From assembly GCA_046330995.1 (NCBI GenBank), contig JAXLRS010000003.1:373634-437633 (forward strand): a DNA stretch of 64,000 bases, given 5' to 3'. The notes under the pieces were generated by a model, which searched no databases, was not told the DNA's origin, and was given only the letters and a program-made list of their open reading frames with translations. The position numbers were made by a program, and so were the translations under genes. This document shows, one piece after another, positions 1,268-62,476 of the stretch. This stretch comes from Dermatophilaceae bacterium (GTDB lineage Bacteria > Actinomycetota > Actinomycetes > Actinomycetales > Dermatophilaceae). Numbering within the stretch: the stretch's first letter is position 1; every line of letters begins with the position of its first letter.

Positions 1268-1275
1268 TGTCGTCG

Positions 1276-5092: not shown

Positions 5093-5138
5093 ACGAGGAA
5101 ATCGTGTCCGCAGCCGTGCCGTGCGCGAGACTTCCGGC

Positions 5139-6855: not shown

Positions 6856-7979
6856 CCACGGCGACCGTGGCTGCGACGAGGGAGCCTCGCGGCGGCACCG
6901 AAATCCTCCTCGGCTTCGCCCGGACCCTGCGGGCCGCCGGAGTTCCGGTCACCGCCGACCGTGAACGCACCTATCTCGAAGCCGTTGCCGCACTTGGGAT
7001 CGGGGATCCGGCCGCCGTCTACCACGCCGGCCGCGCCAGCCTGTGCGGGTCACCCGCCGACCTCGAGCGGCACGACCTCGCGTATGCCGCGTACTTCTCC
7101 GGCGAGCGCGGTGGCACCAAGCGCCGCCCCGCCCCGCCGCCGCCCCCGGTCGCCAACGCCGCGCTCGACTCCCAGCGCACTGGCGACCCGTCCGCACGGG
7201 ACGAAGCTCTCCGGGCCGACGCCAGCAGCACCGAGGTGCTGCGGCGGCGTGACATCGCCGCGCTCTCCGCCGACGAGAAACGTCGGCTCGCCGCCCTCTT
7301 CGGGGGACTCCGTCCGCGGGCACCGCGGCGGCGGGCGCACCGCCATACGCCCGCGCGGCGCGGCCCGATCGACGCCCGCCGCACGCTGCGCGACACCCTT
7401 CGTCGCCTCGGCGAACCCGGTGAGATCCGGCATCGCCGCCGCGGCCACCGGGCGCGCCGGGTCATCCTCCTCCTCGACATCTCAGGTTCCATGGGGCCGT
7501 ATGCCGATTCCCTCCTCCGCCTCGCGCATGTCTTCTGCCGCAGCGGGATTCCCGTCGAGGTCTTCACGCTCGGCACCCGGCTCACGCGGATCACCCGGCC
7601 GCTGCGGCACCGCGACGCCGACCGGGCCCTCGTCGCGGTCGGCGACGCCGTCGCCGACTGGTCCGGCGGGACCCGGCTCGCCGAGGGCCTCGCCGCGTTC
7701 CTCTCGCGGTGGGGGAGAAGGGGTCTGGCCCGCGGCGCCGTGGTCGTCATCGCCAGTGACGGGTGGGAGCGGGGCGACCCGGCCGCGCTCGGCGAGCAGA
7801 TGCGGCGCCTTCGGGCGGTGAGTCACGCGGTGGTGTGGGCGAATCCGCACCGGGGGCGGGCGGCATACGCGCCGGTCCAGGGCGGGATCGTCGCGGCGCT
7901 GCCGCACATCGACCACTTCATCGCGGGGCACTCGCTCGCGGCGTTCGAGGAACTGATCGAGGTGATCGCCGATGCGTGA
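6852..7979 (+). CDS. coxE: VWA-domain protein, CoxE-like
   Basis: GTGA overlap with coxD. MIDAS-type LLLDISGSM and the conserved CoxE C-terminus (WANPHRG...HIDHFIAGHSL). Confidence 0.85.
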   Translation: MTTATVAATREPRGGTEILLGFARTLRAAGVPVTADRERTYLEAVAALGIGDPAAVYHAGRASLCGSPADLERHDLAYAAYFSGERGGTKRRPAPPPPPVANAALDSQRTGDPSARDEALRADASSTEVLRRRDIAALSADEKRRLAALFGGLRPRAPRRRAHRHTPARRGPIDARRTLRDTLRRLGEPGEIRHRRRGHRARRVILLLDISGSMGPYADSLLRLAHVFCRSGIPVEVFTLGTRLTRITRPLRHRDADRALVAVGDAVADWSGGTRLAEGLAAFLSRWGRRGLARGAVVVIASDGWERGDPAALGEQMRRLRAVSHAVVWANPHRGRAAYAPVQGGIVAALPHIDHFIAGHSLAAFEELIEVIADA

Positions 7980-17966: not shown

Positions 17967-19648
<1,682 letters not shown>

Positions 19649-47553: not shown

Positions 47554-49359
47554 TCAGGCGTCGAGGCGCTCCTTGAGGCCATCGAGCTCAGCGGCGAGAG
47601 GGGCGGGGAGTTTGTCGCCGAACTTGGCGAACCACTCCTCGATCAGCGGGAGTTCCTTCCGCCAGTCCTCGACGTTGACGGCGATCGCCTTGGCGACGTC
47701 CTCGTCGGACATGTCGAGGCCGGTGGTGTCGAGGGCGCCCGGCGCGGGGACCAGGCCGACCGGGGTCTCGACGGCCTCGGCGTCGCCGTCGAGGCGCTCG
47801 ACGACCCACTTGAGGACGCGGCTGTTGTCGCCGAAGCCCGGCCACAGCCACTTGCCGTCCTCGTCCTTGCGGAACCAGTTGACCTGGAAGATCCGCGGGA
47901 GCTTGGAGGCGTCGGCCTGCTTGCCGATTTCGAGCCAGTGGTTCATGTAGTCGCCCGCGTGGTAGCCGATGAACGGGAGCATGGCCATCGGGTCGCGGCG
48001 CACGACACCGACCGCGCCCGTCGCCGCCGCGGTCGTCTCGGAGGAGAGCGTCGCCCCGACGAAGGTGCCGTGGGTCCAGTCGCGCGATTCATAGACCAGC
48101 GGGACGGTCGTGGCGCGGCGGCCACCGAAGAGGATCGCGTCGATCGGGACACCGTCGGGGTTGTCGTATTCGTCGGCGATCATCGGGCACTGCTTGGCCG
48201 GAGTGGTGAACCGGCTGTTGGGGTGCGAGCTGAGGACGCCACTCTCGGGGGTCCAGTCGTTGCCCTTCCAGTCGATCAGGTGGGCCGGCTTCTCCTTGGA
48301 GATGCCCTCCCACCAGACGTCGCCGTCGTCGGTGCGGGCGACGTTGGTGAAGATCGAGTTGCCCTTGTCGATGGTGCGCATCGCCATCGGGTTGGTGCTC
48401 ATGCCGGTGCCGGGGGCGACGCCGAACAGACCGAACTCGGGGTTCACGGCATACAGACGACCGTCGGGACCGAAGCGCATCCACGCGATGTCGTCACCGA
48501 TCATCTCGGCCTTCCAGCCGTCGATCGTCGGCTCGAGCATGGCGAGGTTGGTCTTGCCGCACTGGCTCGGGAAGGCGCCGGCGACGTAGTGGACGCTGCC
48601 CTTGGGCGAGGTGAGCTTGAGGATGAGCATGTGCTCGGCCATCCAGCCGTCGTCGCGGGCCATCGCCGAGGCGATCCGCAGGGCGTAGCACTTCTTGCCG
48701 AGGAGGGCGTTGCCGCCGTATCCCGAACCGTAGGACCAGATCTCGCGCGTCTCGGGGAAGTGCGCGATGTATTTGGTGTCGCTGCACGGCCACGGGACGT
48801 CGGCCTCGCCCTCGTCGAGGGGCGCGCCGACGGAGTGGAGACCCTTGACGAAGTCGGCGTTCAGCTCCTCCATCTTCTCGAGGACGGGCGTGCCGATCCG
48901 GGCCATGATCTTCATATTGACCACGACGTATGCCGAGTCGGTGATCTCGACGCCGAACATCGGGACGGTCGCGTCGAGGTGGCCCATGACGAAGGGGATG
49001 ACATACATCGTGCGGCCCTTCATGCAGCCGCGATAGAGGTCGGTCATCGTCGCCTTGAGTTCGACCGGGTCGATCCAGTTGTTGGTCGGGCCGGCGTCCT
49101 CCTCCTTGACCGAGGCGATATAGGTCCGGTCCTCGACGCGCGCGACGTCACTCGGGTCGGAGGCGCACCAGTAGGAGTTGGGTTTCTTCTCGTCGTCGAG
49201 CTTGACGAAGGTGCCCGAGGTGACCAGGTCCTGGTTGAGCTGCTCGATCTCCTCGTCGGTCCCGGTGATCCAGACGACGCGGTCGGGCGTGCAGAGTGCC
49301 GCCACCTCGTCGACCCACGCCTGAAGGGCGGTGTTGCTCGTGGCGGTCTCGGTTGTCAT
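47554..49359 (-). CDS. pckG: phosphoenolpyruvate carboxykinase (GTP)
   Basis: 601 aa from [18 protein letters not shown], the kinase-1a [11 protein letters not shown] motif and WMRF. Confidence 0.95.
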
Positions 49360-49529
49360 GCTCGGTGTCCTCCATACTGTGTGGCGAGGCCCCTTGCCCC
49401 ACAATGATTCCCGCGCGGCCGCCGGTCAGTGGAGACACCGGAACAGCCGCATGGCGGCTTCTGTCGTCCACGGTAGCCCAGGCCCGTTCGCGACCCGCCG
49501 GTGGAAGCGCTTCCCATGTGTGGATCTCC

Positions 49530-49604
49530 TCACAGGCCTGGCGACGGAGTGGACAGGCCTGGCGACGGAGTGGACGACTTCGACGTCCATCCGAGACGTG
49601 TCAT
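49530..49604 (-). pseudogene. 5-prime remnant of a WXG100-domain gene
   Basis: The RBS and first codons are homologous to the gene starting at 57388 (MTRLG- vs MARLGMDVEVVESV) with a 1-nt deletion. An internal 21-bp tandem duplication is followed by a stop. Confidence 0.6.
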
Positions 49605-49655
49605 CGACCTCGGGCTCCTTTCAGCCCGTCGCCGACGAGCCTGAAGGACCACGGG
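49561..49655. repeat. left copy of an approx 95-bp direct repeat (WXG100 gene start region)
   Basis: Aligns by eye at roughly 85% identity with 57344-57440. Confidence 0.8.
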
Positions 49656-50123
49656 ATTCACCGCAGGCGAGGGTGCGGCTCGTTGGCATGACAAAGCCTT
49701 TGGGCGACGTGGCCACGCCAAGGACGCTTTCAGTACCGCCACGACGGTCCGGACGTCAAGAACGTCGGCGAGTCTGCTGCGTCACATTCACGCGTCGGAG
49801 CTCTGGCGTGGTGCCACACTCAAAGGTGGGCTTCGGTAGGGATCAGCAGGTCGCTCGCGGCCCACAGAATGGACGGCGTCATGGCCTCACGCGCGGATCG
49901 CCCGACCTTCCTCCTCCGTATCCGACGGGTGCACCGCCGGATCAATCCGGCCCGAGCCTGGGCGCAGCCGTGGCCTTGAGCCCGCGGCGCTGAGCCAGCT
50001 GCAGCTCCGACGTGTCGCGAGCCGCATTCCCTTTGGTACCGACGCGTTACCGGCCGTCAATTGACGCTGGCGTGGTCGGGACGGCAGCAATCTCACCCAC
50101 GAGCCAGGAGAACTGCCCCTTCT

Positions 50124-50176
50124 CTCCGTGGCCACACGTCCATTTCCCTTCGCTCCGTGGCCACACGTCCATTTCC
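50124..50176 (+). promoter_or_regulatory. two 24-bp direct repeats upstream of the membrane-protein array (candidate operator)
   Basis: CTCCGTGGCCACACGTCCATTTCC at 50124-50147 and 50153-50176, ending 21 nt before the ATG at 50198. Confidence 0.5.
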
Positions 50177-50197: not shown

Positions 50198-50911
50198 ATG
50201 ACCGACACGATCACCGCGGCAGAACCAGCCGTGGTGGATACGGAGCTGAAACGCACGGCCCGGACCACTGGGGCCCTGTATCTTGCGTTCTTCGTCGCAG
50301 GGATCCTCGGGACCTTCGTCATTCGCGGACAGTTGTTCGTGGATGGGGATCCCGCAGCCACCCTGTCCAACCTCACCAGGCTCGAGGGGCTCGCGCGACT
50401 AGGTATCGCTCTCGAGCTCGCCATCGTCGTGGCCCAGGCCCTGACGGCACTCTGGTTCTATCGCCTGTTCCGTGGCGTCGACCGTGTCGCTGCGGCCGCG
50501 CTGGTGCTGTTCGGGATGGCCGGCGCGACGGCCATCCTCGGCAGCGCGGCGCTGCTCGCCACCGCACACGAGGTGGCCGCCGACACCTCGCTGGCCACCG
50601 GCGTCGGCGCGGCCGGGACGGTACAGCTGCTCTACGTCGCCAGCGGTCACGTGTGGGGGGTTGCCGCGGTCTTCTTCGGGCTCTGGCTCATCCCCATGGG
50701 GTGGCTGGTCCTGCGCTCGCGATGGCAGCCGAAGGCGCTCGGGTGGATCCTCATCCTGGCCGGGTTCGGGTACGTTCTCAGCGCGTTCGCGGCATACCTG
50801 CTGCCGGACACCGGCCTCAGCCAACTCCTCACGCTGCCGTCCATCGTCGGCGAGGTGTGGATCATGGGCTACCTGCTCACCGTCGGCATCGCACACCGTC
50901 ATGGGCGCTGA
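50198..50911 (+). CDS. DUF4386-family membrane protein (paralogue 1)
   Basis: ATG at 50198 after GAGGAG. Polytopic, with the typical GALYLAFFVAGI and LGWILILAGFGYV segments. Confidence 0.75.
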   Translation: MTDTITAAEPAVVDTELKRTARTTGALYLAFFVAGILGTFVIRGQLFVDGDPAATLSNLTRLEGLARLGIALELAIVVAQALTALWFYRLFRGVDRVAAAALVLFGMAGATAILGSAALLATAHEVAADTSLATGVGAAGTVQLLYVASGHVWGVAAVFFGLWLIPMGWLVLRSRWQPKALGWILILAGFGYVLSAFAAYLLPDTGLSQLLTLPSIVGEVWIMGYLLTVGIAHRHGR

Positions 50912-51650
50912 AGCAACGACCCGTCCAGGCGTCACCGCACCGCGCGCCGATCCGTTCTGGGCGAGGCTGGAGCGCACAGGCGGGATCGCGGGTCTGGTGT
51001 TCGTCGTGATGGTGCTGGTCGCGCTCGTTCTGATGGTCGTTGCCCCGGTGCCACCGGCCGAGGGCGGACCGCTGCTGGCCTACGTCGCCGCGCACAAAGG
51101 CGTCTACCTCACGGAGCTGATCTGTTTCGTCGGCTTGAGCGTGCCAGCGATGGTCGTCTTCGTCGCCGTCGCCAGGGCGCTCATGGGATCCGACAGAAGC
51201 ATCGCCCTCATCGGCGGGATCCTCGGGGTCGCGGCGGAGACCGTTGCGCTGGCCGTGGGCAGCAGTCCCCAGTCGTTGCACGGCGGCCTGGTCATCCTGA
51301 GCAACTCCTACGCCGCCGCAGAGAGCGACGCCGAGCGCGCCAGCCTGGTCAGCGCCGCGGATGCGCTCATCGCGGCAACCAACGGAGCGCCCTGGGCGGG
51401 AGTGCTGACCGCCGCCGCCATCCTGGTCCTGTCCGCGTTGATGCGGCAGGGGGACTTCGGTCGGACACTCGCCGTTGTCGGGATGATCACGGGCGCGCTG
51501 GGCATCGTCAGCGAGGCATTCAGAACGGTGATCGGCCCGGCCTACCTGCTCTATGGCCTGTTGTTGCCGCTGTGGTTCGCCCTGGTAGGACGCCGGCTGT
51601 TCACGTGGGGCCGCAAGGGCACTTCGTCCTTCCCGGACGCGACCGGGTAG
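50901..51650 (+). CDS. DUF4386-like polytopic membrane protein (paralogue 2)
   Basis: The ATG overlaps the upstream stop. Six predicted helices with the same architecture as its neighbours. Confidence 0.65.
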   Translation: MGAEATTRPGVTAPRADPFWARLERTGGIAGLVFVVMVLVALVLMVVAPVPPAEGGPLLAYVAAHKGVYLTELICFVGLSVPAMVVFVAVARALMGSDRSIALIGGILGVAAETVALAVGSSPQSLHGGLVILSNSYAAAESDAERASLVSAADALIAATNGAPWAGVLTAAAILVLSALMRQGDFGRTLAVVGMITGALGIVSEAFRTVIGPAYLLYGLLLPLWFALVGRRLFTWGRKGTSSFPDATG

Positions 51651-51670
51651 GCAGATGCAGGGAGTCCATC

Positions 51671-52468
51671 ATGAAACCGACGCGCAGGATCTCCATCATC
51701 GCGGGGACGCTGTTCATCCTCGCTACCTCCGGCACCCTGATCGCCGAGGGCATTGCCCCCGAGCTGACCGGAACCGATTACCTCGCCGGTGTGGCCGCAG
51801 GGTCGGGCACGATGGCCACCGCGCTCCTCCTGCAACTGTTCGCAGCGGGGTGCAGTGTCGGCATCGCCATCGTGTTGTATGCCGTGTTGCGTCGCACCCA
51901 CCCGACCCTTGCCCTGGGTGCGGTCGTCTTTCGCGCGATCGAAGCGGTCTTCTATCTCGTCGGAGTCGTGAGCCTGATGACGGTGCTCAGCATCGCCACT
52001 GCCCACGCCCCGGCGGCCGGGGGACCGTCCCCCTGGCAGACCGTAAGCGACACGCTGCGGTCTGCTCACGATCGGGCCGGCGTCGTCGCGGTGAGCGCTT
52101 TCGTCGTCGGCGGGCTTCTCTATTACATCGCCCTCTACCGGACCCGTCTCATCCCGCGCTGGCTGTCCGGGTGGGGCATTGCAGCGCTTCCCTTGATGGG
52201 CATGGCCTGCGGCCTGGCGGTGTATGCCGACGCGCCGGTGACGAACTACGTTCCGCTTGCCGCACCGATCGGCATCCAGGAGATCGTCTTCGGCATCTGG
52301 CTGCTCGCCAAGGGCTTCGACGCGGTCGAACCCAGCCAGCACGGATCGGTCGCGACCTCGGCCGACCAATGTATCGCCAGCCGTCCAGTGCAGGCCGCCA
52401 CGCCGGGAAGGGGCCAAGCCCGATCGGGCACGGCTGCCAGCGACGCACCGATCCCAATCCGTGAGTGA
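51671..52468 (+). CDS. DUF4386-family membrane protein (paralogue 3)
   Basis: LIPRWLSGWGI and IQEIVFGIWLLAKGF motifs. Pro/Ala-rich tail. Confidence 0.75.
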   Translation: MKPTRRISIIAGTLFILATSGTLIAEGIAPELTGTDYLAGVAAGSGTMATALLLQLFAAGCSVGIAIVLYAVLRRTHPTLALGAVVFRAIEAVFYLVGVVSLMTVLSIATAHAPAAGGPSPWQTVSDTLRSAHDRAGVVAVSAFVVGGLLYYIALYRTRLIPRWLSGWGIAALPLMGMACGLAVYADAPVTNYVPLAAPIGIQEIVFGIWLLAKGFDAVEPSQHGSVATSADQCIASRPVQAATPGRGQARSGTAASDAPIPIRE

Positions 52469-52478
52469 GGAAACCGCC

Positions 52479-53318
52479 ATGTCGACCCACATCCCATCCC
52501 AATTCGCCCCGCCTTCGTATCGAGGAAACGCCATCGCCGCAGGAGTGCTGCTCATCGTCTGCACGGTCATCAGCATCCTGAGCGCCGCACCCCTGGGCTC
52601 AACCCTGGACAACGGGGACTACCTCGCCCAGTTGCCGTCGCGGGAGAGCAGTGTGCTACTCAGCGCCGTCCTGGAGTTCGTGTGGGCAGCCACGGGGGTC
52701 GGGATCGCTGTCGCGTTGTACCCGGCCCTGCGCAGTCACAACCGTGGGCTGGGCCTGGGCGCTGTCGCCGGAAGGCTGGTCGAGGGCGTGTTCGTGATGG
52801 TCGGCTCCCTCGGCCTGCTGGCGGCGTTGACCGTGGGCCAGCATGCGCAGACAGCAGGCACGCCAGGGCCGGCGGCCCAGGCCGCCGGAGACTCCATGAT
52901 GGCCCTGCGCCACTGGGCGCTCGGGTTCCTCGGACTGCTCACGTTTCTCACCGGGGCACTCATGTACTACCTCGTGCTGTTCAACGCGCGACTGTTGCCG
53001 CGCTGGCTGGCGGGATGGGGCATCGCGGCGGTGGCACTCTCCTATGTCGCTACCCTCCACGCCGGCTACACCCAGGCCTTCGGGTTCTCCACGGTCAACA
53101 CCGTGCTCAACGTCCCGATCCTGCTTCAGGAGATGGTCATGGCGGTGTGGTTGATCGTCAGAGGGTTCACCCCCCCTCGCGCATGCGAACCCGAGCTTCT
53201 CGCCGCCATCGCCACCGATCCAGCCGGTGACCGCACGACAGCGCCGGTCGGCGCGACCGGCACCACATCCACCCCGGTCGCTGCCGCGTCCGGCCAAACC
53301 CCTGTCCCTCGTCACTGA
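52479..53318 (+). CDS. DUF4386-family membrane protein (paralogue 4)
   Basis: LLPRWLAGWGI and LQEMVMAVWLIVRGF. Clearly paralogous to 51671..52468. Confidence 0.75.
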   Translation: MSTHIPSQFAPPSYRGNAIAAGVLLIVCTVISILSAAPLGSTLDNGDYLAQLPSRESSVLLSAVLEFVWAATGVGIAVALYPALRSHNRGLGLGAVAGRLVEGVFVMVGSLGLLAALTVGQHAQTAGTPGPAAQAAGDSMMALRHWALGFLGLLTFLTGALMYYLVLFNARLLPRWLAGWGIAAVALSYVATLHAGYTQAFGFSTVNTVLNVPILLQEMVMAVWLIVRGFTPPRACEPELLAAIATDPAGDRTTAPVGATGTTSTPVAAASGQTPVPRH

Positions 53319-53330
53319 ACGGAGCGCATC

Positions 53331-54068
53331 ATGTCAACCACCCTCCCATCGGCGGTCATGGAGTCCACCGGGACCGATCCCCCGGCACCGCCGTCCACGG
53401 CATACCCGCTGCAACTCGACGCGACCTTGGATGAGCCGCTGTCCAGGTGGCTGTGGCTCGTCAAGTGGCTGCTGCTGATCCCGCACTACCTGGTGTTGGT
53501 CGTGCTCTACGCCGGCTACCTGGTGGTCACGGTGATCGCGTTCGTGTCGATCCTGGTGACCGGACGATATCCGCGCTGGGCGTTCGACTACACCAGCGGC
53601 GTGCTGCGCTGGTCGTGGCGGGTGCAGTACTACGGCTACAGCGCTCTGGCCACTGACCGTTATCCGCCGTTCACCCTCGCCGACGTGCCGGACTACCCGG
53701 CCCGGCTGACCATCGCCTATCCCGAACACCCCTCGCGTGGAAAGGCTCTGGTCCAGTGGTGGCTGCTGCCGATACCGCACTTCCTCGTCCTTGCCATCCT
53801 CATCGGATCACAGTCCTCCACCGGTGACGGCGGCTGGGAACAGGGGACCAGCGTGCCGGGGCTGATCGGCCTGTTGGCGTTCTTCGCCGGTATCGCCCTG
53901 CTGTTCACAGCGTCCTACCCCCGCGGCCTGTGGCGTTTCGTCGTCGGCCTCAACAGATGGGTATTCCGGGTCATCGCCTACGCCAGCCTGCTGACGGACC
54001 GTTATCCGCCATTCCGTCTCGATCAGGGTGGCCGCGAGCGTGACAACGACATCGAACCCCGTAGGTGA
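53331..54068 (+). CDS. DUF4389-family membrane protein
   Basis: Duplicated LxIPHYLVL ... TDRYPPF modules. Confidence 0.75.
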   Translation: MSTTLPSAVMESTGTDPPAPPSTAYPLQLDATLDEPLSRWLWLVKWLLLIPHYLVLVVLYAGYLVVTVIAFVSILVTGRYPRWAFDYTSGVLRWSWRVQYYGYSALATDRYPPFTLADVPDYPARLTIAYPEHPSRGKALVQWWLLPIPHFLVLAILIGSQSSTGDGGWEQGTSVPGLIGLLAFFAGIALLFTASYPRGLWRFVVGLNRWVFRVIAYASLLTDRYPPFRLDQGGRERDNDIEPRR

Positions 54069-54414
54069 TCCGAGCCCACAGGCTCGGCACCACGAACCGA
54101 CGACGCAAGCCCCGGCCCACTGGCGGCGGACCTTCGTCTGGCTGACCCTGGCGGGGGCGGCGGGCTTCTGGCTGGCGAACCTGGCGATCTCGTCGACGTC
54201 CATTGCGGCGGACTACCGGTCCGCCGCGTTCGCCGCGGCGACCGACCGCCCGCGGCGCTACCTGCTCATCGGCACCATGCTCAACGCCGTCCGCAGCACC
54301 GCTCTCGGCGTCGCCGTCGGGTATGGCGCCGAGCGCCAGCTCCGCGGTAAGGGCCAGGGGTCCTCCGGTGCTCACTCGGCCCCCCACAACACCGAAAGGC
54401 CGGATACGTCATGA
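54028..54414 (+). CDS. small hypothetical membrane protein
   Basis: High G/C third-position bias and one clear TM helix (TFVWLTLAGAAGFWLANLAI). Start uncertain (54028 or GTG near 54040). Confidence 0.45.
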   Translation: MAASVTTTSNPVGDPSPQARHHEPTTQAPAHWRRTFVWLTLAGAAGFWLANLAISSTSIAADYRSAAFAAATDRPRRYLLIGTMLNAVRSTALGVAVGYGAERQLRGKGQGSSGAHSAPHNTERPDTS

Positions 54415-54692
54415 CTCGCCGTCGCCTGCTCCCCGAAGGCTTCTTCGGGCCTGTCGACTATGCCGCTCGCACCCCTTACCGTCGTCCGCCGGGCTTCTAT
54501 CGACGGCTTCAGTCGATCGCGCCGTTCTTCAGGAGGCTCGGCATCACCCCCGCTTACGTGGTCGAGCTCGAAGTGCCGGGCCGTCGCACCGGTCAGCCAC
54601 GCAGGACCCTGGCCTTGGTTCCCCACGGCTTGTCACTGATCACCGCGTCCCGGCCCCACAGCGGTCACGTCGTGGCCGCGAGGGTCGGCTGA
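54411..54692 (+). CDS. short ORF resembling the N-terminal half of a DUF385/deazaflavin-dependent nitroreductase-family protein
   Basis: ATGA overlap with the upstream ORF. VELEVPGRRTGQPRRT resembles the conserved GRxSGxxRxTP segment. Only 93 aa, so probably truncated. Confidence 0.35.
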   Translation: MTRRRLLPEGFFGPVDYAARTPYRRPPGFYRRLQSIAPFFRRLGITPAYVVELEVPGRRTGQPRRTLALVPHGLSLITASRPHSGHVVAARVG

Positions 54693-54723
54693 CGTGTTCC
54701 GTCAACGAAGCGAGGAGATCGCA

Positions 54724-55455
54724 ATGACGAACATCCACACAGCCACACCGCAGGCCACGACTCCGGAGAGGACCAACTCGTGGCGAATGGGCGGCCTCGC
54801 CGCCTTGGCTGGAGCGGCGACGAATCTCACCGGCCTGGCCGTGTTCACAGCCCTCCTGCTGCCGAACGGACTAGGCGACACCGAGGCCGCCCCCGGCACA
54901 GTGGTGGGGCTCCTTGCCGACAATCACACCGCCATGCGCGCGTGGTACATCATCATCTACCTGGTCTTCGGCGCCTGCCTCGTCGTCCTGTCGCTGTCGC
55001 TCTCGGACCACCTCGAGTCTCGATCCGCCCTGGCGCACGCCGCGACCACCCTGGGCCTGATCTATGCGGTGCTGGTCATCGTCATCGGTACCCTGCAGAT
55101 CACCGACCTGGACACGGTGGTCAGGCTCCATGGCCAGGACCCGGCACAAGCCGCCACCGCATACACCACGCTCAACTCCGTCGAAACCGGCCTGGGCGCC
55201 GGAGGCGGAGAGACGATCACCCTCGCGCTGTGGCTGCTGATGCTCAGCTGGGCAGCGCTGGGGGCCCGGGAACTCCCACGGTTGCTCAACTACCTGGGCC
55301 TGCTGCTCGGTGCAGCGGGCATCTTCTCGGTGCTCCTGAACTCCCTGCTGCTGATGTCGGTCAGCGGTCTCGGCCTCATCATCTGGCTGTTGTGGCTCGG
55401 CATCGCCATGCTTCGCGAGGGCCGGCGGGCGACCGACCCTCCGCACCGACCGTGA
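54724..55455 (+). CDS. DUF4386-like polytopic membrane protein (paralogue 5)
   Basis: ATG at 54724 after GAGGAG. Six hydrophobic segments, ELPRLLNYLGLLLGAAGI. Confidence 0.65.
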   Translation: MTNIHTATPQATTPERTNSWRMGGLAALAGAATNLTGLAVFTALLLPNGLGDTEAAPGTVVGLLADNHTAMRAWYIIIYLVFGACLVVLSLSLSDHLESRSALAHAATTLGLIYAVLVIVIGTLQITDLDTVVRLHGQDPAQAATAYTTLNSVETGLGAGGGETITLALWLLMLSWAALGARELPRLLNYLGLLLGAAGIFSVLLNSLLLMSVSGLGLIIWLLWLGIAMLREGRRATDPPHRP

Positions 55456-55533
55456 CGACCGACCGATCCACCAACCGGCAGCGGCGGAGTAACGACATTC
55501 GCAAGATCACCCCATCGGATCGATTCCGATGCC

Positions 55534-56034
55534 ATGGAAACGGAGTTGATGGACATGTCCACCATGCAAGCGACACGCACAGCGCCGACCCTCGGGAAGC
55601 GCCGGGACGACCCGGTCAACGTCAAGGTCATCCTGAGCGGACTGTGGACGGCGATGCTGTTCGTCTTCGCCTACGTCGACATCTTCGCCTACCTGCGCGC
55701 CGACGTCCTGCACGCGGCGATGGCCGGGAAGGTGGCGACCACAGGGTTCACGGTCAACCAGACCTTCCTGGCGCTCACCTTGATATACATCCTCGTGGCG
55801 GCGTTGATGGTGCCCCTGTCCTTGGTGCTCGGAGCCAGGGTCAACCGGGTTGTCCAATTCGTTGTGAGCGTCGCCTACACCATCACCATCATCGCCGCCG
55901 CGGCCGGCGAGTCGTGGGCGTACTACATCGTCGGCAGCGTCGTCGAAGTCCTGTTGCTGGTGGCGATCTTCCGGATCGCCTGGAAATGGCCATCGGCCCC
56001 CGTCCGACACGACGACGCGAACCAGCAGGCATAA
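55534..56034 (+). CDS. DUF6326-family membrane protein
   Basis: VKVILSGLWTAMLFVFAYVDIF and C-terminal YYIVGSVVEVLLLVAIFRIAWKW match my memory of the family. Confidence 0.65.
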   Translation: METELMDMSTMQATRTAPTLGKRRDDPVNVKVILSGLWTAMLFVFAYVDIFAYLRADVLHAAMAGKVATTGFTVNQTFLALTLIYILVAALMVPLSLVLGARVNRVVQFVVSVAYTITIIAAAAGESWAYYIVGSVVEVLLLVAIFRIAWKWPSAPVRHDDANQQA

Positions 56035-57388
56035 GCCTCACGCCGCAGAGGGTGGGCCGAACCGTGGCCGCGTCGGTCTGTGGGCTGGTCCACCTTCCGG
56101 ACGAGCCGTTGGATCTGGTGACCGAGATCAACGAGCGGGTCTTCGCGCCGCTGATCAAAGACCTGATCATCCGAGGCAACCAGGCTGCCTCATGGCACGT
56201 GCCGGACCCGGGCGCGACCGCACGGTATTGCGTCGTCATCGACATCGAAGCCATCAACCGGCTCCGAAGCGAGCCGGCCCGGGACCCGGAGCGCTCGGCC
56301 GTGGAGGCCATGCTCCGGCTGCTGGGCGCACCCAACGACAGCGAAAGCGAGCCGACGCTGATCTTGCTTCCGCAGTTGCGTCTTGCCGCCCACCTGACGC
56401 TGGCCGTCGCCGCTCTGTGGTGATCCACGTGTGGCGCCCTGACCGGCCGTAGCGCCTCTGGGCGAGGCTTGTAGCAGGCGACTGCATCCGCGACTGCGCT
56501 CATGATCGAGGAGCCCGTCGAGACGGAACTGGTCGGGACCGCGTGCGCGCGGGTGTAGACGTCGGCGAGGAAGGCGCCCGCCTCTCGGTCGTATGCCGAG
56601 ACCACGCCCGGCACCATCTCGGGAGTGAGCTTCTCGACAACGGCGCCGCGCATCTCCGCGCCAGCCCAGCCGGCGGCCCCCTTGGCCGCTCCCTCGGCGA
56701 CGAGGCCCGCGGCATGGCCCACCGACAGCGTGCTGAGATCGGTTGTCGAACCTCCTGGGACTCCCGCCTTGATCGTGCCATAGACGGCCTCGACCTGTGC
56801 CTTCGACATGTCATCGAAGTTGTCCGCCGCGATCGTCGCGAAATCGTGGACCTTGGACCGGTTCCCGCTGGCCAGGCTGAGCAGGTAGCAGTATTTCTGA
56901 AAGGCGGCCACTTCGGCGGCGCTCGGATTGGGATTGTTCCGGAGTTCCTTGCCCCACGCCTCGGCCCTGGCATAGGCCTGCGGGTAGTGGTCCTTGATGC
57001 CCGACTGCCCGATCACCTTCAACCGCGTGGCGATGTCGTTGACCTGCTGCTCGGTCGCCGGCTCATCGCGGCGCCATGGGTCATGTCGCCGAGGCGCCGG
57101 TGCGCCGCCGACGGCGCCGGTCGACTCACTCGCGCGGCGTTGCTCGGCCGCCTGCCGCTGGGCCTGGCGTGCATAGTCGTCGATCGCCTGGGCCAACTGG
57201 TCGAGGTGCCGGTGCTGGCGCTGCCAGTCACCGACCAGGGCCGACGCGTCGCGGCCGATCCACACTTCTTGGGCCCGGCGCAGGGATCGGTCCAGAGCGG
57301 ATGTGATCGACCTGAGGGCGTGCGCGGCTGACGTCAACTCCTTGGCGACGGACTCGACGACTTCGACGTCCATCCCGAGACGTGCCAT
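55889..57388 (-). CDS. WXG100-domain fusion protein with no stop codon of its own (3-prime truncated or chimeric)
   Basis: The N-terminal approx 95 aa form a helical hairpin with W-x-G (EVWIGRD). The sequence looks like a real protein to about 56450. Below that the ORF is the antisense shadow of the + strand genes. Confidence 0.55.
   Translation of the reverse strand: MARLGMDVEVVESVAKELTSAAHALRSITSALDRSLRRAQEVWIGRDASALVGDWQRQHRHLDQLAQAIDDYARQAQRQAAEQRRASESTGAVGGAPAPRRHDPWRRDEPATEQQVNDIATRLKVIGQSGIKDHYPQAYARAEAWGKELRNNPNPSAAEVAAFQKYCYLLSLASGNRSKVHDFATIAADNFDDMSKAQVEAVYGTIKAGVPGGSTTDLSTLSVGHAAGLVAEGAAKGAAGWAGAEMRGAVVEKLTPEMVPGVVSAYDREAGAFLADVYTRAHAVPTSSVSTGSSIMSAVADAVACYKPRPEALRPVRAPHVDHHRAATASVRWAARRNCGSKISVGSLSLSLGAPSSRSMASTAERSGSRAGSLRSRLMASMSMTTQYRAVAPGSGTCHEAAWLPRMIRSLISGAKTRSLISVTRSNGSSGRWTSPQTDAATVRPTLCGVRLMPAGSRRRVGRGPMAISRRSGRSPPATGLRRRCRRCSTPTTRRPRRR
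56052..56423 (+). CDS. hypothetical soluble protein
   Basis: Balanced composition (DEPLDLVTEINERVFAPLIKDLIIRG...). The overlapping minus-strand reading is Ser/Arg-rich shadow. GTG at 56052 or 56064. Confidence 0.5.
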   Translation: MGRTVAASVCGLVHLPDEPLDLVTEINERVFAPLIKDLIIRGNQAASWHVPDPGATARYCVVIDIEAINRLRSEPARDPERSAVEAMLRLLGAPNDSESEPTLILLPQLRLAAHLTLAVAALW

Positions 57389-57440
57389 CGACCTCGTGCC
57401 CCTTTCAGTCCCGTGCCCCGACGAGCCTGAAGGACGACGG
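57344..57440. repeat. right copy of the approx 95-bp direct repeat (WXG100 gene start region)
   Basis: See 49561..49655. Confidence 0.8.
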
Positions 57441-57564
57441 AGATCACGTCACGTCCAACGTTCGGGGGGCACGGGGGGCGCCAAGCCACCCACGGCAGGG
57501 CCGAGGCCATGCGAGGGTGCGGTGGAGGAGGACGACCGCGGTGCCCCGAGCGGCTGACGGTCGA

Positions 57565-58026
57565 TCAACCCGCGGACGTCCCCGACGTCGCCGTCGTCGA
57601 GCGCGCCGAGCCGTTGGCCCTCGCGCTCACGGTGGCAGTCCCGCCGGCGTCGAGGTTGACGATCTCGACCTCACACCGGGCGCTCCCCTCGCCGTGCTCG
57701 GTCACATGTGCCCGAGCCTCGAGCACGCCGTTGCGGGCCGCTCGCAGGTAGGTGACGGAGACCGTCTCCGTGAGCACACTCGGCCCGAGCACCGATCCGG
57801 CCGCGAACGTCAGCGCGTTGTCGGCGAGGTAGGCATGGACCCCGCCGTGGACGAGCCCGAACTGCTGGCGGTGGTCGTCGCCGATCGCGAGCCGGAGGAC
57901 CGCGTGACCGTCGCCGAAGGCCGTGATCTCGGTCCCGAGGAGGCGCGAGAACGGCTGGGCCGCCAGGATGGTTCGAGCCAGGTCGAGCCGAGCGTCCGGG
58001 TCATCCGGGACGAGGTGGGGGGCCAT
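57565..58026 (-). CDS. PaaI-family hotdog-fold thioesterase
   Basis: QPFSRLLG...GLVHGGVHAYLADNA, a typical PaaI core. Confidence 0.8.
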   Translation of the reverse strand: MAPHLVPDDPDARLDLARTILAAQPFSRLLGTEITAFGDGHAVLRLAIGDDHRQQFGLVHGGVHAYLADNALTFAAGSVLGPSVLTETVSVTYLRAARNGVLEARAHVTEHGEGSARCEVEIVNLDAGGTATVSARANGSARSTTATSGTSAG

Positions 58027-58052
58027 GACCCCATTATCGGGCGCTGCGGCGG

Positions 58053-58874
58053 CTAGTGCGGGACCTCACCGAGCCGGACGTATGCCGCACGCAACACCTC
58101 GACGAGCCCGTGACCGCCGACCATCAGCTTTGTGGGTGGCACCTGGTCGAGCAGGGCGTCGCTCGGCGCGGCGATCGGCATACGGGATGGCAGTGGTGCC
58201 TGGAGCGCGAAGAAGGAGTCGAGGCACTCGATGAGCGGCACGACGTGCTCGGCGTCGGCGGGTCGGTCGACCGGGTACGTGCCAGTGCGCAGCGCGGCCA
58301 GCGTCTCGAGCAGGTCCGCGCGGGTGCGCCCGCGCCACGCGAGGATGCCGAACGGGTCCTCGTCGAAAGACTCGGCCAGCAGATAGAAGGCGGCCGCGAT
58401 GTGTTTGCAGGGCACCGACCAGTCCGGGCAGGTGCAATCCAGCGACAGCGCGCCCGCGCTGGCGGGGAACAGCGAGAGCCCGACCGAGGCGAAGGCGTCC
58501 TCGATGTCTTCGGGCATCTCGCCGGCGAGGAGCCGCGCGATGTACCACGCGTCGCGCGCGAGCTCCTCGGTGACGCGCGCCCACGCGGATTTGTCGAAGG
58601 GTGTGACGGCGATTCGCACGCGATAGGGCCGGGCGCGGGTGCCCTGGACCCATGCGCTCACCGCCCCCGGTTCGATGGTGAGGTCGATGACCTGCCCCTT
58701 GCGGGCGTATGTGCGACCCCGCTGGAGGCGCGCGCCGACACCGAGCGACTCGAGCACGGCGATGAACCGCTCGGACCACCAGGTCTGGGCGATCGCCCCG
58801 CGTCGGCTCCGGGCGCGTATGCCGTCCGCGACCGGCCGCGGCTTGGCCGGGGGTGGGTACCAGCGGCTACTCAT
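58053..58874 (-). CDS. SWIM zinc-finger protein
   Basis: CTCPDWSVPCKHIAA SWIM motif. Overlaps the stop of the upstream SNF2 gene by 8 nt. Confidence 0.85.
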   Translation of the reverse strand: MSSRWYPPPAKPRPVADGIRARSRRGAIAQTWWSERFIAVLESLGVGARLQRGRTYARKGQVIDLTIEPGAVSAWVQGTRARPYRVRIAVTPFDKSAWARVTEELARDAWYIARLLAGEMPEDIEDAFASVGLSLFPASAGALSLDCTCPDWSVPCKHIAAAFYLLAESFDEDPFGILAWRGRTRADLLETLAALRTGTYPVDRPADAEHVVPLIECLDSFFALQAPLPSRMPIAAPSDALLDQVPPTKLMVGGHGLVEVLRAAYVRLGEVPH

Positions 58875-61800
58875 CGGTGGCGTCCTCGGCGAGGGCGAAC
58901 AGGTCGCGCAGCGCGCCCGTCGACAGTTCGGTCAGCCAGCCCTCGCCATCGGTCACGACACTGTTCGCGAGGGCCTTCTTGTCCTCGATCATCGCGTCGA
59001 TCTTCTCCTCGAGGGTCCCCACGCAGACGAACTTCCGCACCTGGACGCGGCGCTTCTGACCGATCCGGAACGCGCGGTCGGTGGCCTGGTTCTCGACGGC
59101 CGGGTTCCACCAGCGGTCGAGGTGGATGACGTGGTTGGCGGCGGTGAGGTTCAGCCCGGTGCCGCCCGCCTTGAGCGAGAGGAGGAACAGCGGTGGGCCG
59201 TCGTCGGACTGGAACCGCGTGACCAGCTCGTCACGGCGCTGCTTCGAGGTCCCGCCGTGCAGATAGAGGATCTCGGTGTCGAATCGGGCAGACAGATGCG
59301 GCAGAAGCAACTCGGCGAAGTCGGTGTACTGCGTGAACAGCAGGGCCTTGTCGCCCTCGGCGAGGATCTCCTCGACGATCTCCTCCAGGCGGGTCACCTT
59401 GCCCGACCGCCGGCCGATGGGCGAGTGGTCGTGGAGCAGCTGAGCGGGGTGATTGCACACCTGCTTGAGTTTGGTCATCGCCGCCAGGACGTTTCCGCGC
59501 CGCTCGATGCCGGTGCTGGTCTCGATTCGCCGCATCATCTCATCGACGACCGACTGATAGAGGGCCGCCTGCTCGATGGTCAGGCGGTAATGCTGCGTGA
59601 TCTCGATCTTCTCCGGCAGGTCGTCGATGATCGTCGGGTCCGTCTTGACCCGGCGAAGGAGATAGGGGCGGGTGATCGTCCGCAGCCGGCCGGCGGGCTC
59701 GGTCTCTCCGTGGCGTTCGATCGGCACGGCATACCGCGCGCGGAACTTCTCGGCAGACCCGAGGATCCCCGGGTTGAGCACATCCATGATCGCCCAGAGT
59801 TCGGACAGCCGGTTCTCCATCGGGGTTCCGGTCAGGGCCACGCGATGGCGGGCAGGCAGCCGCCGCACGGCCCGCGCGGCGCGCGACTGGCTGTTCTTGA
59901 CCGCCTGCGCCTCGTCGAGAACGAGCCGTTCCCAGTCGTATGCCGCGAGCTCGTCGATGTCGCGTGTGGCGGTGTGGTAGGTGGTCACGACGAGATCGGC
60001 GGTGGCCAGGTGGTCCGCGAGGTCCGTCCCATGGCAGCGTTCCCGGCCGTGATGCGGATAGAGGCGCAGGTGCGGGGCGAAGCGGGCGGCCTCGCGCTGC
60101 CAGTTGCCGACCAGGGACATCGGGCACAGCAACAGGGTGGGGCGGGCGACGGGGCGTTCGCTGCGTTGGTGGCTTTCCAGGGCCAGCAGTTGGATCGTCT
60201 TGCCGAGCCCCATGTCGTCCGCCAGGCAGGCACCCAGGCCGAGGTCGGCGAGGAACGCCAGCCAGGACAGTCCCCGGGTCTGGTAAGGCCGCAGGTCCGC
60301 ATGGAAACCGTCGGGAGTGGCGAGGGGTTGCAGGGTCCGTTCGGCGGAGCCCGTGAGCAGGTCGCCCAGGGGACCGTCGGCGTGGATCGCCATGACCGGC
60401 AGCGGCGTGTCGAGGTCGTCGGGATGGCGGGTGGCCAGCGCGATGACCTCGCCGACCGTCGAGGGGCGAGCGGCCTGACGGGCGAGGAAGTCCAGCCCTC
60501 GCTGCAGCTGGTCGGGGTCGACGACGACCCATTGGCCGCGCAGCCGGACGAGGGGCGCCTTGGTGGCGGCGAGCGCGGCCAGTTCCTCGTCGGTCAGCGC
60601 CTCGTCGCCGACGGCGAGCTGCCACGCGAAGTCCACCAGGGAGTCCCGGCCGAACCGGCCTCCGGTCACCGTCGAGTCGGTCGGGGTGGATGCGGAACCG
60701 CGCAGGCCGAGGCGCTGCCGATGCGACCACCAGGCCGGCAGGAGGACCCCGAACCCGGCCTGGTCGAGGAGGGCGGCTCGGCAGGTGAGGAAGTCGTGGG
60801 TGCCGTGGAGGTCGAGGGCGAGGGCGTCAGGGTGGGAGGTGTGCAGAGCATCGATGAGCGCGGGATAGATCGTGCTCGCCCGGCCGAGTTCCGCCAGGAG
60901 CAATTCGTCGGGGCGGCTCAGCCAGCGGGCGAGCCCGTCGCCGCCGCTCCACACCTGCTCCGCGGCCACGAGCAGGGTGGGGTCCTGCGCCGACTGAAGC
61001 CAGAACTCCAGCCGCCAACGGGGCGCGGGCGAATCAGAGGAATCGCCGAGGTCCCCAAGGGCGGAGTCGGAGTCGGGTTCCGCGAGGCGGAAGGTCAGTC
61101 GCGCCGGGCCGGCCGGCCCGGCGCCGAACTGGGCCCACGGCGCCAGCGCCTCGGCGAGGGCGGCCACCTCGTTGGGTGTGGCCTCGAACTCGGCCACCGG
61201 TGAGGTGAGGGCGAGGAGCCAGGCGTCGGTGGGCGGCATACGTCTCGGTCGTCGGCCGCGACGCGGCGGCGGCAGGCGAGTGCTCTCTAGACGCCGGCGG
61301 ACGACGGCGTCGGTGAAAGTGGCGGTCGCGTCGCCGACCAGGGCGGTGGGGCTCTGACCGGCCGGGTCGCCGGACGCGGGGGCCTCGGCGCGGCATACGG
61401 GGGGCAGCGCAGCGGAGAGTGCGGCGGCGACGACGACGTCGGGACCTTGGAGGACCGGGCGCCAGCGTGCCTGCGGCGGCGTGTGCTCATCGCCCGGTTG
61501 GACGTCCGGGAGCACCCGGCCGCGCTCGGCCAGATCACGGGCGAACGCGGCGATGTCGGCGAGGTGGTGCATGGAGACGCCGTAGCGGGCCTCGATGATC
61601 GGCAGGTCGAGGACGTCGAGCGCCGACCTCGGATCGACGCGGACCACCGGCACGGTCCAGGGCAGCAGGATCGGCGGCTTCCCGCTCTCCCGGCGAGGCC
61701 GAAGTCGCGGAACCTCGGGTGAGTCGAGGGGCGAGCGGCTCGTGGACGGCAGCAGGAGCGTGGCCGTGCCGGGTGCCCCGGTCAGGCCGGGCACCGCGTC

Positions 61801-61944
61801 GGAGAGGTCGGCGGGAGCTGCCGCGAATGGGTGGGGTCGGGCGCTGCGGACCGCCTGGCTGGGGCTGGTGACGGGCGACTGCGAGTCTTCGGCCCACAGG
61901 CACAGCCCCCGGGTTGCCGACCAGAAACCGTGGACCACCAGCAT
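58867..61944 (-). CDS. SNF2-family helicase (HelZ-like)
   Basis: ATG at 61944 (MLVVHGFWS) in ORF 58867..62706. DDMGLGKT, DEAQAVKN and the helicase C motifs (GGTGLNLTAANHVIHLDRWWNP). Confidence 0.9.
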   Translation of the reverse strand: MLVVHGFWSATRGLCLWAEDSQSPVTSPSQAVRSARPHPFAAAPADLSDAVPGLTGAPGTATLLLPSTSRSPLDSPEVPRLRPRRESGKPPILLPWTVPVVRVDPRSALDVLDLPIIEARYGVSMHHLADIAAFARDLAERGRVLPDVQPGDEHTPPQARWRPVLQGPDVVVAAALSAALPPVCRAEAPASGDPAGQSPTALVGDATATFTDAVVRRRLESTRLPPPRRGRRPRRMPPTDAWLLALTSPVAEFEATPNEVAALAEALAPWAQFGAGPAGPARLTFRLAEPDSDSALGDLGDSSDSPAPRWRLEFWLQSAQDPTLLVAAEQVWSGGDGLARWLSRPDELLLAELGRASTIYPALIDALHTSHPDALALDLHGTHDFLTCRAALLDQAGFGVLLPAWWSHRQRLGLRGSASTPTDSTVTGGRFGRDSLVDFAWQLAVGDEALTDEELAALAATKAPLVRLRGQWVVVDPDQLQRGLDFLARQAARPSTVGEVIALATRHPDDLDTPLPVMAIHADGPLGDLLTGSAERTLQPLATPDGFHADLRPYQTRGLSWLAFLADLGLGACLADDMGLGKTIQLLALESHQRSERPVARPTLLLCPMSLVGNWQREAARFAPHLRLYPHHGRERCHGTDLADHLATADLVVTTYHTATRDIDELAAYDWERLVLDEAQAVKNSQSRAARAVRRLPARHRVALTGTPMENRLSELWAIMDVLNPGILGSAEKFRARYAVPIERHGETEPAGRLRTITRPYLLRRVKTDPTIIDDLPEKIEITQHYRLTIEQAALYQSVVDEMMRRIETSTGIERRGNVLAAMTKLKQVCNHPAQLLHDHSPIGRRSGKVTRLEEIVEEILAEGDKALLFTQYTDFAELLLPHLSARFDTEILYLHGGTSKQRRDELVTRFQSDDGPPLFLLSLKAGGTGLNLTAANHVIHLDRWWNPAVENQATDRAFRIGQKRRVQVRKFVCVGTLEEKIDAMIEDKKALANSVVTDGEGWLTELSTGALRDLFALAEDATDE

Positions 61945-62347
61945 GCAGTCTCCCGGGACCTGGTTCGTTCGGCGTGATCGGATCGACCCTACCGGTCGCA
62001 ACCGACGCTCAGCGGGACCCATCCGGTCCAGGGATCGATGGCTGATCTGTGGATCCGCTGCTCCCGGCGGTCCGTGGCCTGCTCGATGAAGCAATGTCAC
62101 TCCTGGTGCCCGCCTGGGTGGCACCGGATGTGACGTTGCCGGCACCAGAAGGCACCTGCGTAGCGTCAGGGGGGATGCTGGAGGTGGGGCCGGGTGATGT
62201 GCCGCGGACCAGCGACCTGAGCGAGGGATCACAGGGTGGGGCGCGAAGAGTTCTCGAGCCCATTCTTGGGCCAGCCAGGCACCGCCAACGCGGCTGGAAG
62301 GGGATATACGGACCACGTTTGCGCAGGTCACAGACCATTTTGGTTCT

Positions 62348-62476
62348 GCGCGCCCGAAGGTGGGCCCCAGCGGTGGCGCTGACGAAGGAAGCGCGCCCGA
62401 AGGTGGGCCCCAGCGGTGGCGCTGACGAAGGAAGCGCGCCCGAAGGGGGGCCCCAGCGGTGGCGCTGACGAAGGAA
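62348..62476. repeat. three tandem 43-bp repeats
   Basis: Units at 62348-62390, 62391-62433 and 62434-62476. Each begins with GCGCGCCCGAAGG, which is also the start of the adjacent tRNA fragment. Confidence 0.9.

Follow-up and report, generated by a model that had tools for sequence, protein, structure and literature searches.

Gene content of the array

The window analyzed here is a 64,000-nucleotide (nt) stretch of a Dermatophilaceae contig, actinobacterial DNA with a GC content of about 0.70. Its plus strand carries ten open reading frames (ORFs), g1 to g10, between 50198 and 56423, which encode small membrane proteins of the DUF4386, DUF4389, and DUF6326 families together with several gene remnants. 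Sequence comparison identifies this array as a partly eroded copy of a gene module that is found in Actinomycetota and Chloroflexota. An earlier note on this DNA had described a same-strand, ten-gene array at this place. All ten ORFs were found at these coordinates, but three of them are remnants, and the intact genes number seven (g1–g5, g8, and g9).

Neighboring ORFs overlap by 4–41 nt or are separated by gaps of 10–93 nt. The overlaps lie at g1/g2 (11 nt), g5/g6 (29–41 nt), and g6/g7 (4 nt). This agrees with the overlaps and short gaps described before, except that the gaps exceed the 80 nt given there as their upper limit. Shine-Dalgarno-like sequences are present upstream of g1, g3, g4, g5, and g8. 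Frame analysis based on the GC content of third codon positions (GC3) supported the proposed frames along the whole array. A scan for consensus promoters and terminators gave nothing informative in such high-GC DNA.

Membrane protein families

Five ORFs encode proteins of the DUF4386 superfamily, whose members are about 230–280 amino acids (aa) long and have six transmembrane (TM) helices. These are g1 (50198..50911, 237 aa), g2 (50901..51650, 249 aa), g3 (51671..52468, 265 aa), g4 (52479..53318, 279 aa), and g8 (54724..55455, 243 aa), assigned to the subfamilies D1, D2, D3, D4, and D8, respectively. Hydropathy analysis gave six TM-like segments in each of them. The Pfam gathering cut-off for DUF4386 (PF14329) is 27.6 bits, and it was passed by g1 (168.1 bits), g3 (124.7 bits), g4 (127.6 bits), and g8 (31.1 bits). 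g5 (53331..54068, 245 aa) passed the cut-off of 25 bits for DUF4389 (PF14333) with 68.3 bits in two stretches. It consists of a duplicated two-TM module with RYPPF motifs, and both halves hold the invariant form TDRYPPF. g9 (55534..56034, 161–166 aa, four TM helices) passed the cut-off of 24 bits for DUF6326 (PF19851) with 32.4 bits.

g2 had no Pfam match and did not reach the PF14329 cut-off. Its family belongs to the same superfamily as the others according to profile–profile comparison, because hhalign aligned the g2 and D3 families with a probability of 97% (E 1e-10) and D8 with D2, its closest subfamily, at 99.3%, and 23 of 38 g2 relatives matched PF14329. g2 is thus placed by these profiles in the DUF4386 superfamily, outside the Pfam family as now defined, and all five window paralogs (g1–g4 and g8) are assigned to one superfamily. 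The g2 family is small: among 1.84 billion representative proteins it accounts for 406 representative clusters. The calls of the earlier note hold at this level: one DUF4389 protein with a duplicated module, one DUF6326 protein, and five DUF4386-like proteins, of which four are recognized by Pfam and g2 only through profile–profile comparison.

The earlier note had also taken two of the DUF4386 proteins for recent paralogs from their shared LxPRWLxGWGI motifs. The two proteins, g3 and g4, are only 35% identical, and the LxPRWLxGWG motif is near-invariant throughout the DUF4386 family; since it is the family hallmark, its presence in both is no sign of recent duplication. Sequence identity and the separate conservation of each subfamily in Chloroflexota rule out a recent origin and identify g3 and g4 as ancient paralogs. 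Members of D3 and D4 keep the polar residues R88 and E91 in TM3 and Q203 and E204 in TM6, in addition to a PRWLSGWG loop. These four residues are not conserved in D1, D2, and D8. AlphaFold2 predicted a bundle of six long helices for g3, with a predicted local distance difference test score (pLDDT) of 89, and its model of g5 reached a pLDDT of 83.

NCBIfam gave no name for any membrane protein of the array, and the anti-phage defense models of PADLOC-DB gave no match to any of the ten proteins. A literature search found no mention of DUF4386, DUF6326, or the Pfam accessions, and the lone mention of DUF4389 was an entry in a gene table. These results and the lack of a match in the Protein Data Bank (PDB) are in line with the earlier statement that the families have no assigned function.

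Remnant genes

The remnant calls rest on the closest relative of the array, which occurs in a metagenome-assembled genome (MAG) of Nostocoides (formerly Tetrasphaera) sp. (GCA_037045025.1, L015/L018). g6 (54028..54414) belongs to a conserved four-TM family without a Pfam model. In the family alignment, about 62 internal residues are deleted from it in frame, which removes TM2 and TM3 and leaves two of the four helices. It is probably a remnant, and not the single-TM ORF described earlier.

g7 (54411..54692) is a deletion chimera of the N-terminus of an FDOR-A (DUF385) reductase and the tail of another ORF, as traced by tblastn and by blastn against L015. Residues 1–67 match the beginning of an intact 182-aa F420H2_quin_red protein (PF04075, formerly DUF385) of L015 at 92.5% identity, and g7 is 85% identical to the metagenomic protein L010_10804 over 66 aa. 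The tail is the end of a 101-aa L015 ORF located about 3 kb further on. Compared with L015, a deletion in the window has removed the remainder of the reductase gene together with a 128-aa ORF and the insertion sequence (IS; DDE_Tnp_1) site of L015. g7 had no Pfam match, scored 14.8 bits against TIGR00026 (cut-off 46.35), and does not hold a full-length split barrel. The truncated DUF385-like ORF of the earlier note therefore represents the first 67 aa of an F420H2-dependent reductase joined to a foreign tail and is predicted to be non-functional as a reductase.

g10 (56052..56423), which had been listed as a small soluble ORF, matches the C-terminal part of the TetR_N protein of L015 (6880–7437), which lies upstream of the L015 array, with 59% identity over 86 aa. 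It had no Pfam or NCBIfam match, and the helix-turn-helix (HTH) domain PF00440 was not found in it. This alignment identifies g10 as a C-terminal TetR stump of about 86 aa.

Copies of the cassette in Actinomycetota

The same cassette lies between WS_DGAT and gyrA genes in L015/L018, with 85–92% nt identity to the window. The aa identity is 85% for g1, 94% for g5, and 83% for g9. The L015 copy has an upstream TetR gene, an intact F420H2_quin_red gene, and an IS element. It has lost most of g2, and its g6 is broken. The ratios of nonsynonymous to synonymous substitution (dN/dS) against L015 are 0.30 for g1, 0.30 for g3, 0.33 for g4, 0.17 for g5, 0.47 for g8, and 0.27 for g9, and these membrane genes with L015 orthologs are under purifying selection. 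A second cluster near the first in L015 has the order TetR, D2, SRPBCC, g6, D1, and Flavodoxin_5.

Two metagenomic loci, L007 and L010, have the order lipoprotein, D2, SRPBCC with F420H2_quin_red, D3, g6, DUF4389, F420H2_quin_red, and TM240. These cassettes are flanked by transposases or an integrase, and g2 is 65% identical to their D2 orthologs.

DUF4389 joins the module in Actinomycetota only. A general linkage of DUF4389 with DUF4386 was considered and rejected, as three more distant DUF4389 loci hold no DUF4386 gene and DUF4389 is present in only 2 of the 79 D3 loci of the survey described below. One solitary DUF4389 gene, in Thermomonospora cellulosilytica (L013, 4928–10764), is located among four Usp genes and flavodoxin_5 genes; this context suggests that DUF4389 outside the cassette is linked to a stress regulon. 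The cassette was not found in a plasmid collection, where single family members only were detected. One of these plasmids, from Rhodococcus antarcticus (NZ_CP110616.1, L101), carries at 5970–6934 a DUF6326 gene convergent with an adjoining gene of the deazaflavin-dependent nitroreductase family, which adds one more anecdotal case of DUF6326 paired with an F420-type reductase.

Conservation of the module in Chloroflexota

A scan with the D3 profile, using one genome per species, yielded 80 loci. Because L018 and L015 cover one and the same region, 79 loci were counted. The six-frame ORFs of these loci, within a neighborhood of about 7 kb, were searched for each window family by profile or sequence, and the other neighbors were clustered unlabelled. 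At least two DUF4386-superfamily genes were present in 32 of the 79 loci and at least three in 16. A g6-family gene was counted in 15 loci (matches to the family fall in about 15–19 loci) and DUF6326 in 11. An MDR oxidoreductase (ADH_N/ADH_zinc_N_2) was found in 27 loci, a MalT-type LuxR regulator (TPR_MalT and GerE) in 34, and a conserved protein of about 100 aa without a Pfam model, termed sm, in 30. ABC ATPase genes occurred in five loci, and CPBP/Rce1-like genes in five Chloroflexota loci.

The Chloroflexota loci come from Chloroflexia, Anaerolineae, Caldilineaceae, and Promineifilum MAGs. Their consensus arrangement is LuxR, sm, [DUF6326], [D8], D4, D3, TM158, D1, g6 (one to three copies), and MDR, although the order varies. 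The MDR ORFs lie on the array strand in 33 of 35 cases, and among the NCBIfam models they match the PIG3 NAD(P)H quinone oxidoreductase family best, though below its cut-off. The subfamilies are orthologous to those of the window: g3 is the nearer window protein for all 79 proteins of the D3 type, g4 is the nearer one for 17 of 25 of the D4 type, and g1 is the nearest for 16 of 17 of the D1 type. No relatedness was found when TM158 and the g6 family were compared with DUF4389, DUF6326, and DUF4386.

This neighborhood analysis, which the earlier note had proposed along with the profile assignments, showed that DUF4386 subfamilies, the g6 family, and DUF6326 recur on the same strand in many Chloroflexota. 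The concentration of these families in one array, which the earlier note had regarded as unusual, is not due to chance, given the cassette at another locus in the Nostocoides MAG and the arrays in Chloroflexota. The comparisons point to the same membrane core being kept in two phyla, with the reductase and the regulator swapped for non-orthologous equivalents.

The sm protein has the motifs YQIRxKGHL and DQAALHGLLKKVRDLG and matches no Pfam or NCBIfam model. Its gene comes directly after that of the MalT-type LuxR protein of about 900 aa and before the DUF4386 array, and the pair is present in about 30 species (L021–L096, e.g., L040:6650–6946 and L025:404–3166).

Insertion of the segment and truncation of the WXG100-like gene

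The whole array lies in a strain-specific inserted segment of about 6.95 kb (6,952 nt, 49539..~56490), which takes the place of 320 bp found in an empty-site strain. In that near-identical strain (L098, also L099), an intact WXG100-like gene adjoins PEPCK. The reverse complement of L098 matches the window in two blocks, 1–920 with window 48619–49538 at 100% identity and 1241–7131 with window 56487–62377 at 99.8% identity. The 320 nt between these blocks comprise the intact 3' end of the WXG100-like gene and the stretch that separates it from PEPCK. In a related species (L100), too, these two genes adjoin and the array is missing.

The composition of the segment is atypical. Its GC content is 0.673 versus 0.701, and the tetranucleotide distance that separates it from the remaining window is 0.0253, compared with 0.0107 ± 0.0016 for segments of the same size, a difference of about 9 standard deviations. 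The 30 commonest octamers occur at 7.6 per kb in the segment versus 13.7 ± 2.35 per kb in control segments. Thus, the segment shows the presence/absence polymorphism with precise flanks and the atypical composition of a genomic island. No integrase or transposase of its own and no target-site duplication were found for the window island. At the left junction, a 7-nt microhomology, ACAGGCC, is shared with the empty-site flank. Inspection of the sequence at both junctions also revealed a 21-nt tandem duplication on the plus strand at the left junction (49533..49574, two copies of ACAGGCCTGGCGACGGAGTGG). The segment entered this strain recently through illegitimate recombination.

In the window, the WXG100-like gene (56487..57388, minus strand) is truncated after about residue 300 of 392. 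Homologs are 392–399 aa long, and one of 392 aa (P0392) is 99% identical to the window protein over the first ~300 residues, after which the two diverge. The minus-strand frame remains open from 57388 to 55889, and beyond the gene remnant it reads the antisense of g10 and g9. The pattern of GC content at first and second codon positions switches near 56450, and the plus strand codes below that point. The contact between array and gene, which the earlier note had described as a convergent array fused to a truncated WXG100 gene, came about through the chance position of the insertion, and the coding part of that gene extends only from 57388 to about 56487. The gene is a bystander that lost its last ~92 codons as collateral damage, because the empty-site strain has the intact 392-aa gene next to PEPCK.

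The window protein scored 24.1 bits (E 4.4e-5) against WXG100 (PF06013), for which the cut-off is 27.3 bits. The orthologs P0393–P0395 carry precomputed PF06013 matches, and the match at L100 is weak. The 392–399-aa family (L098:4990–6168, L100:366–1559) combines a weak WXG100-like domain at the N-terminus with a conserved C-terminal region, and its genes are found in synteny with those for PEPCK and a 4HBT thioesterase. Its loci have no type VII secretion genes nearby and no obvious downstream immunity gene, and no Pfam family of the type VII secretion system (T7SS) appeared among the top matches of the 32 other window ORFs. Public assemblies (L001–L006) annotate a 262-aa plus-strand ORF at 56543–57331, antisense to the WXG100-like gene. 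This call is probably wrong, because GC3 marks the minus strand as coding.

An orphan copy of the start and 5' leader of the WXG100-like gene (49560..49654, minus strand, 95 nt) lies just inside the left junction. The repeat search and blastn showed that it is 90% identical to 57343–57440, in agreement with the earlier observation that repeats of the gene start bracket the array. The L015 region with both DUF4386 clusters lies between a full WS_DGAT gene (1–476) and an 85-aa WS_DGAT_cat fragment (18311–18568), flanks that resemble the WXG100-like gene and the orphan piece of the window island.

Proposed function of the module and alternative explanations

The comparisons show a module of four to five anciently diverged DUF4386-superfamily proteins with six TM helices (D1, D2, D3, D4, and D8), a g6-family protein with four, and DUF6326. 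More complete copies also encode a soluble hydride-transfer reductase of the quinone/enone-reducing type and a ligand-sensing regulator. The reductase of Actinomycetota is an F420H2-dependent FDOR-A enzyme, sometimes accompanied by SRPBCC, and that of Chloroflexota is an NAD(P)H-dependent MDR enzyme resembling quinone oxidoreductases. The regulator is TetR in Actinomycetota and MalT-type LuxR in Chloroflexota. The window copy is without a working reductase, regulator, or full-length g6.

The best explanation, proposed with moderate confidence, is a conserved membrane module of several components that, jointly with a reductase, handles a small molecule of hydrophobic and redox-active nature, and of which the window has a mobile, eroded copy. 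The earlier note had offered a multi-component envelope stress or transport module as one hypothesis, and a multi-component membrane module is a fair reading because the same subfamilies recur with the g6 family and DUF6326 in Chloroflexota. The distinct paralogs and the small TM proteins would assemble, probably as a hetero-oligomer, into a module of the cytoplasmic membrane, a step proposed with moderate-to-low confidence. The module may bind, move, or convert a quinone-like, xenobiotic, or lipid-derived compound, which the soluble reductase would then reduce and the regulator would sense. The window copy, whose repressor is gone, may be constitutively expressed or may be decaying towards loss. 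The Ddn/Fqr F420H2-dependent quinone reductases belong to the FDOR-A family (PMC3567243), and the SRPBCC partners and the TetR or MalT-type regulators would fit small hydrophobic ligands. A bolder form of this proposal can be put forward only tentatively: D1, D3, D4, D8, and in some cases D2 might join the g6-family protein and DUF6326 in an unrecognized cross-phylum multi-subunit complex that works with an interchangeable F420H2- or NAD(P)H-dependent quinone/enone reductase, which would be a new mobile machine for membrane redox, detoxification, or lipid processing.

Several findings weigh against the proposed module. In about half of the D3 loci the DUF4386 gene stands alone, so the paralogs need not form a complex, and the more distant DUF4389 genes are usually solitary as well. 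The D3 proteins of the Chloroflexota loci are 44–92% identical (median 74%), a moderate kinship, so part of the synteny is inherited and not independently maintained. Both known actinobacterial copies of the cassette are eroding at different places (g2 and g6 in L015; g6, g7, and the regulator in the window), which fits dispensability. The only pointers to the substrate class are the neighboring reductases, SRPBCC proteins, and regulators, all of them members of broad families, and the MDR and FDOR matches fall below equivalog cut-offs. Foldseek searches of the PDB with the g3 and g5 models gave nothing significant (best E 0.2 and 1.1, respectively), the D3 and DUF4389 alignment profiles had zero matches among PDB sequences, and no component has a characterized homolog in NCBIfam, PDB sequences, PDB folds, or the literature.

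The alternative that best survives is that the genes have no joint function and are individually acting, partly redundant membrane genes that share mobile, decaying DNA. The reciprocal gene loss between the two cassette copies, the moderately relaxed dN/dS (up to 0.47), the many solitary D3-type and DUF4389 genes, and the absence of R88, E91, Q203, and E204 from D1, D2, and D8 are consistent with it. It is nevertheless considered unlikely, as distinct subfamilies, the g6 family, and DUF6326 recur on the same strand in two phyla despite changes of order, the spacing is tight with some gene overlaps, and around one membrane core the reductase and regulator have each given way to non-orthologous equivalents.

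The array may also be an exporter of small molecules or a resistance cassette of the efflux type, controlled by TetR or MalT, with the reductase as a merely loosely linked neighbor. A divergent TetR gene adjoins solitary D3 genes in four loci, and also in L015; the ABC ATPase genes of five loci, the setting of the cassette in islands of horizontal gene transfer, and the conserved charged residues in TM3 and TM6 of D3 and D4 point in the same direction. This explanation is judged rather unlikely because no similarity to the MFS, SMR, ABC, RND, or MATE families was found, in 27 loci the operon ends with the reductase gene on the same strand, and four to five different paralogs would be unusual for an exporter.

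Another candidate is that the DUF4386 proteins are membrane lipid hydrolases, distant kin of YhhN/TMEM86, which act in the remodeling or detoxification of lysolipids or ether lipids while the reductase takes the aldehyde or enal. Aldehydes or enones are reduced by MDR and FDOR enzymes. Weak matches to PF07947 were obtained for 14 of 64 D3-type proteins (best E 5.6e-5), always in a constant register in which DUF4386 residues ~123–208 (TM4–TM6) align with profile positions 36–115. YhhN-family proteins are lysoplasmalogenases, one of which occurs in M. tuberculosis (PMC9052158, PMC3137066). Against this, the best score was 25.1 bits versus a gathering cut-off of 25.6 bits, with under half of the profile covered (36–115 of 182), none of the five window paralogs matches PF07947, DUF4386 proteins have six TM helices versus eight in YhhN, and the structure and profile searches of the PDB described above found nothing of the kind. 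Kinship with YhhN is thus distinctly improbable.

Finally, the earlier note had suggested an immunity or protection island linked to a WXG100 effector, against which the polytopic paralogs would guard. The array does abut the WXG100-like gene, toxin-immunity loci typically have arrays of small polytopic paralogs, and CPBP/Rce1-like genes occur in five Chloroflexota loci. This reading is nevertheless hardly credible, as the isogenic empty-site strain and a related species lack the array and have the gene intact beside PEPCK, the window array is convergent with that gene and has cost it its 3' end, the cassette stands at unrelated loci in L015, L007, and L010, none of the other loci (0/79) was brought in via a WXG100 gene, no T7SS families occur among the other window ORFs, and the window protein remains below the WXG100 cut-off (24.1 versus 27.3 bits).

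Comparison with known systems and significance

The module proposed here has no described counterpart in the searched sources, and its member families are catalogued as DUFs. It was rated as outside the known kinds of system, as the comparisons with T7SS immunity, known transporters, defense systems, and YhhN did not place it in any of them. One of the closest known systems is the Ddn/Fqr system of mycobacteria (FDOR-A, PF04075), whose enzymes of the Ddn class reduce membrane quinones with F420H2 (PMC3567243). Intact actinobacterial cassettes encode one or two members of this family, and g7 is an N-terminal stump of one. In contrast, the window reductase is truncated, the membrane proteins of the array are without a counterpart in the described Ddn/Fqr system, and the Chloroflexota module uses an NAD(P)H-type MDR enzyme in place of the F420 enzyme. 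YhhN/TMEM86 proteins (PF07947) are likewise small and polytopic and show a consistent weak profile match to TM4–TM6 of the D3 type, but the match is partial and sub-threshold, the window paralogs do not share it, and the number of TM helices differs (six versus eight).

TetR-regulated resistance or efflux islands resemble the cassette in having TetR beside hydrophobic membrane proteins and in being mobile, with an IS or integrase nearby (L015, L007, and L010). They differ from it in that the cassette has no homology to known transporters and conserves several paralogs with a reductase, and the window TetR is only a C-terminal fragment. WXG100/LXG type VII toxin–immunity islands share with the window an array of small polytopic paralogs beside a WXG100-like gene. 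The immunity genes of such an island would be expected to lie directly downstream of the effector gene and in the same direction, whereas the window array is convergent and truncates the gene; in addition, the linkage seen in the window is not conserved elsewhere, and the window has no T7SS genes.

DUF4386, DUF4389, and DUF6326 are large, widespread families, and the analysis turns anonymous genes into a defined, testable module. Distinct DUF4386 subfamilies and two other small membrane-protein families travel together and move between genomes. Natural controls are available in the isogenic island-free strain and in cassettes that have kept or lost the reductase. If the hydrophobic redox-active role is true, the module would be a new membrane component in the quinone, F420, and xenobiotic biology of wastewater and soil bacteria.

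Repeats upstream of the array and an over-represented octamer

A 29-nt tandem duplication on the plus strand (50117..50174), which holds the palindrome GTGGCCAC, lies just upstream of g1. The earlier note had read it as a distinctive direct-repeat operator. The tandem exists, but the sequence is single-copy in L015 and L016, so the duplication is not conserved, and a conserved direct-repeat operator was rejected on the ground that the nearest relative has one copy. Both this duplication and the 21-nt duplication at the left edge of the segment are private to this strain.

The word GTATGCCG and its complement occur 82 times in the 64 kb, compared with about one occurrence expected from dinucleotide-preserving shuffles (e.g., at 962, 1371, 2289, and so on to 63574). 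The copies are dispersed in both orientations (45 and 37) without extended conserved context. The inserted segment has four copies versus 9.5 expected (Poisson P 0.04), which modestly bears out the earlier remark that the array is octamer-poor. The density per kb is 1.4 in L098, 1.2 in L011, 1.1 in L100, and 0.6 in L015. GTATGCCG looks like a lineage-wide over-represented word, perhaps related to uptake, Chi, or methylation.

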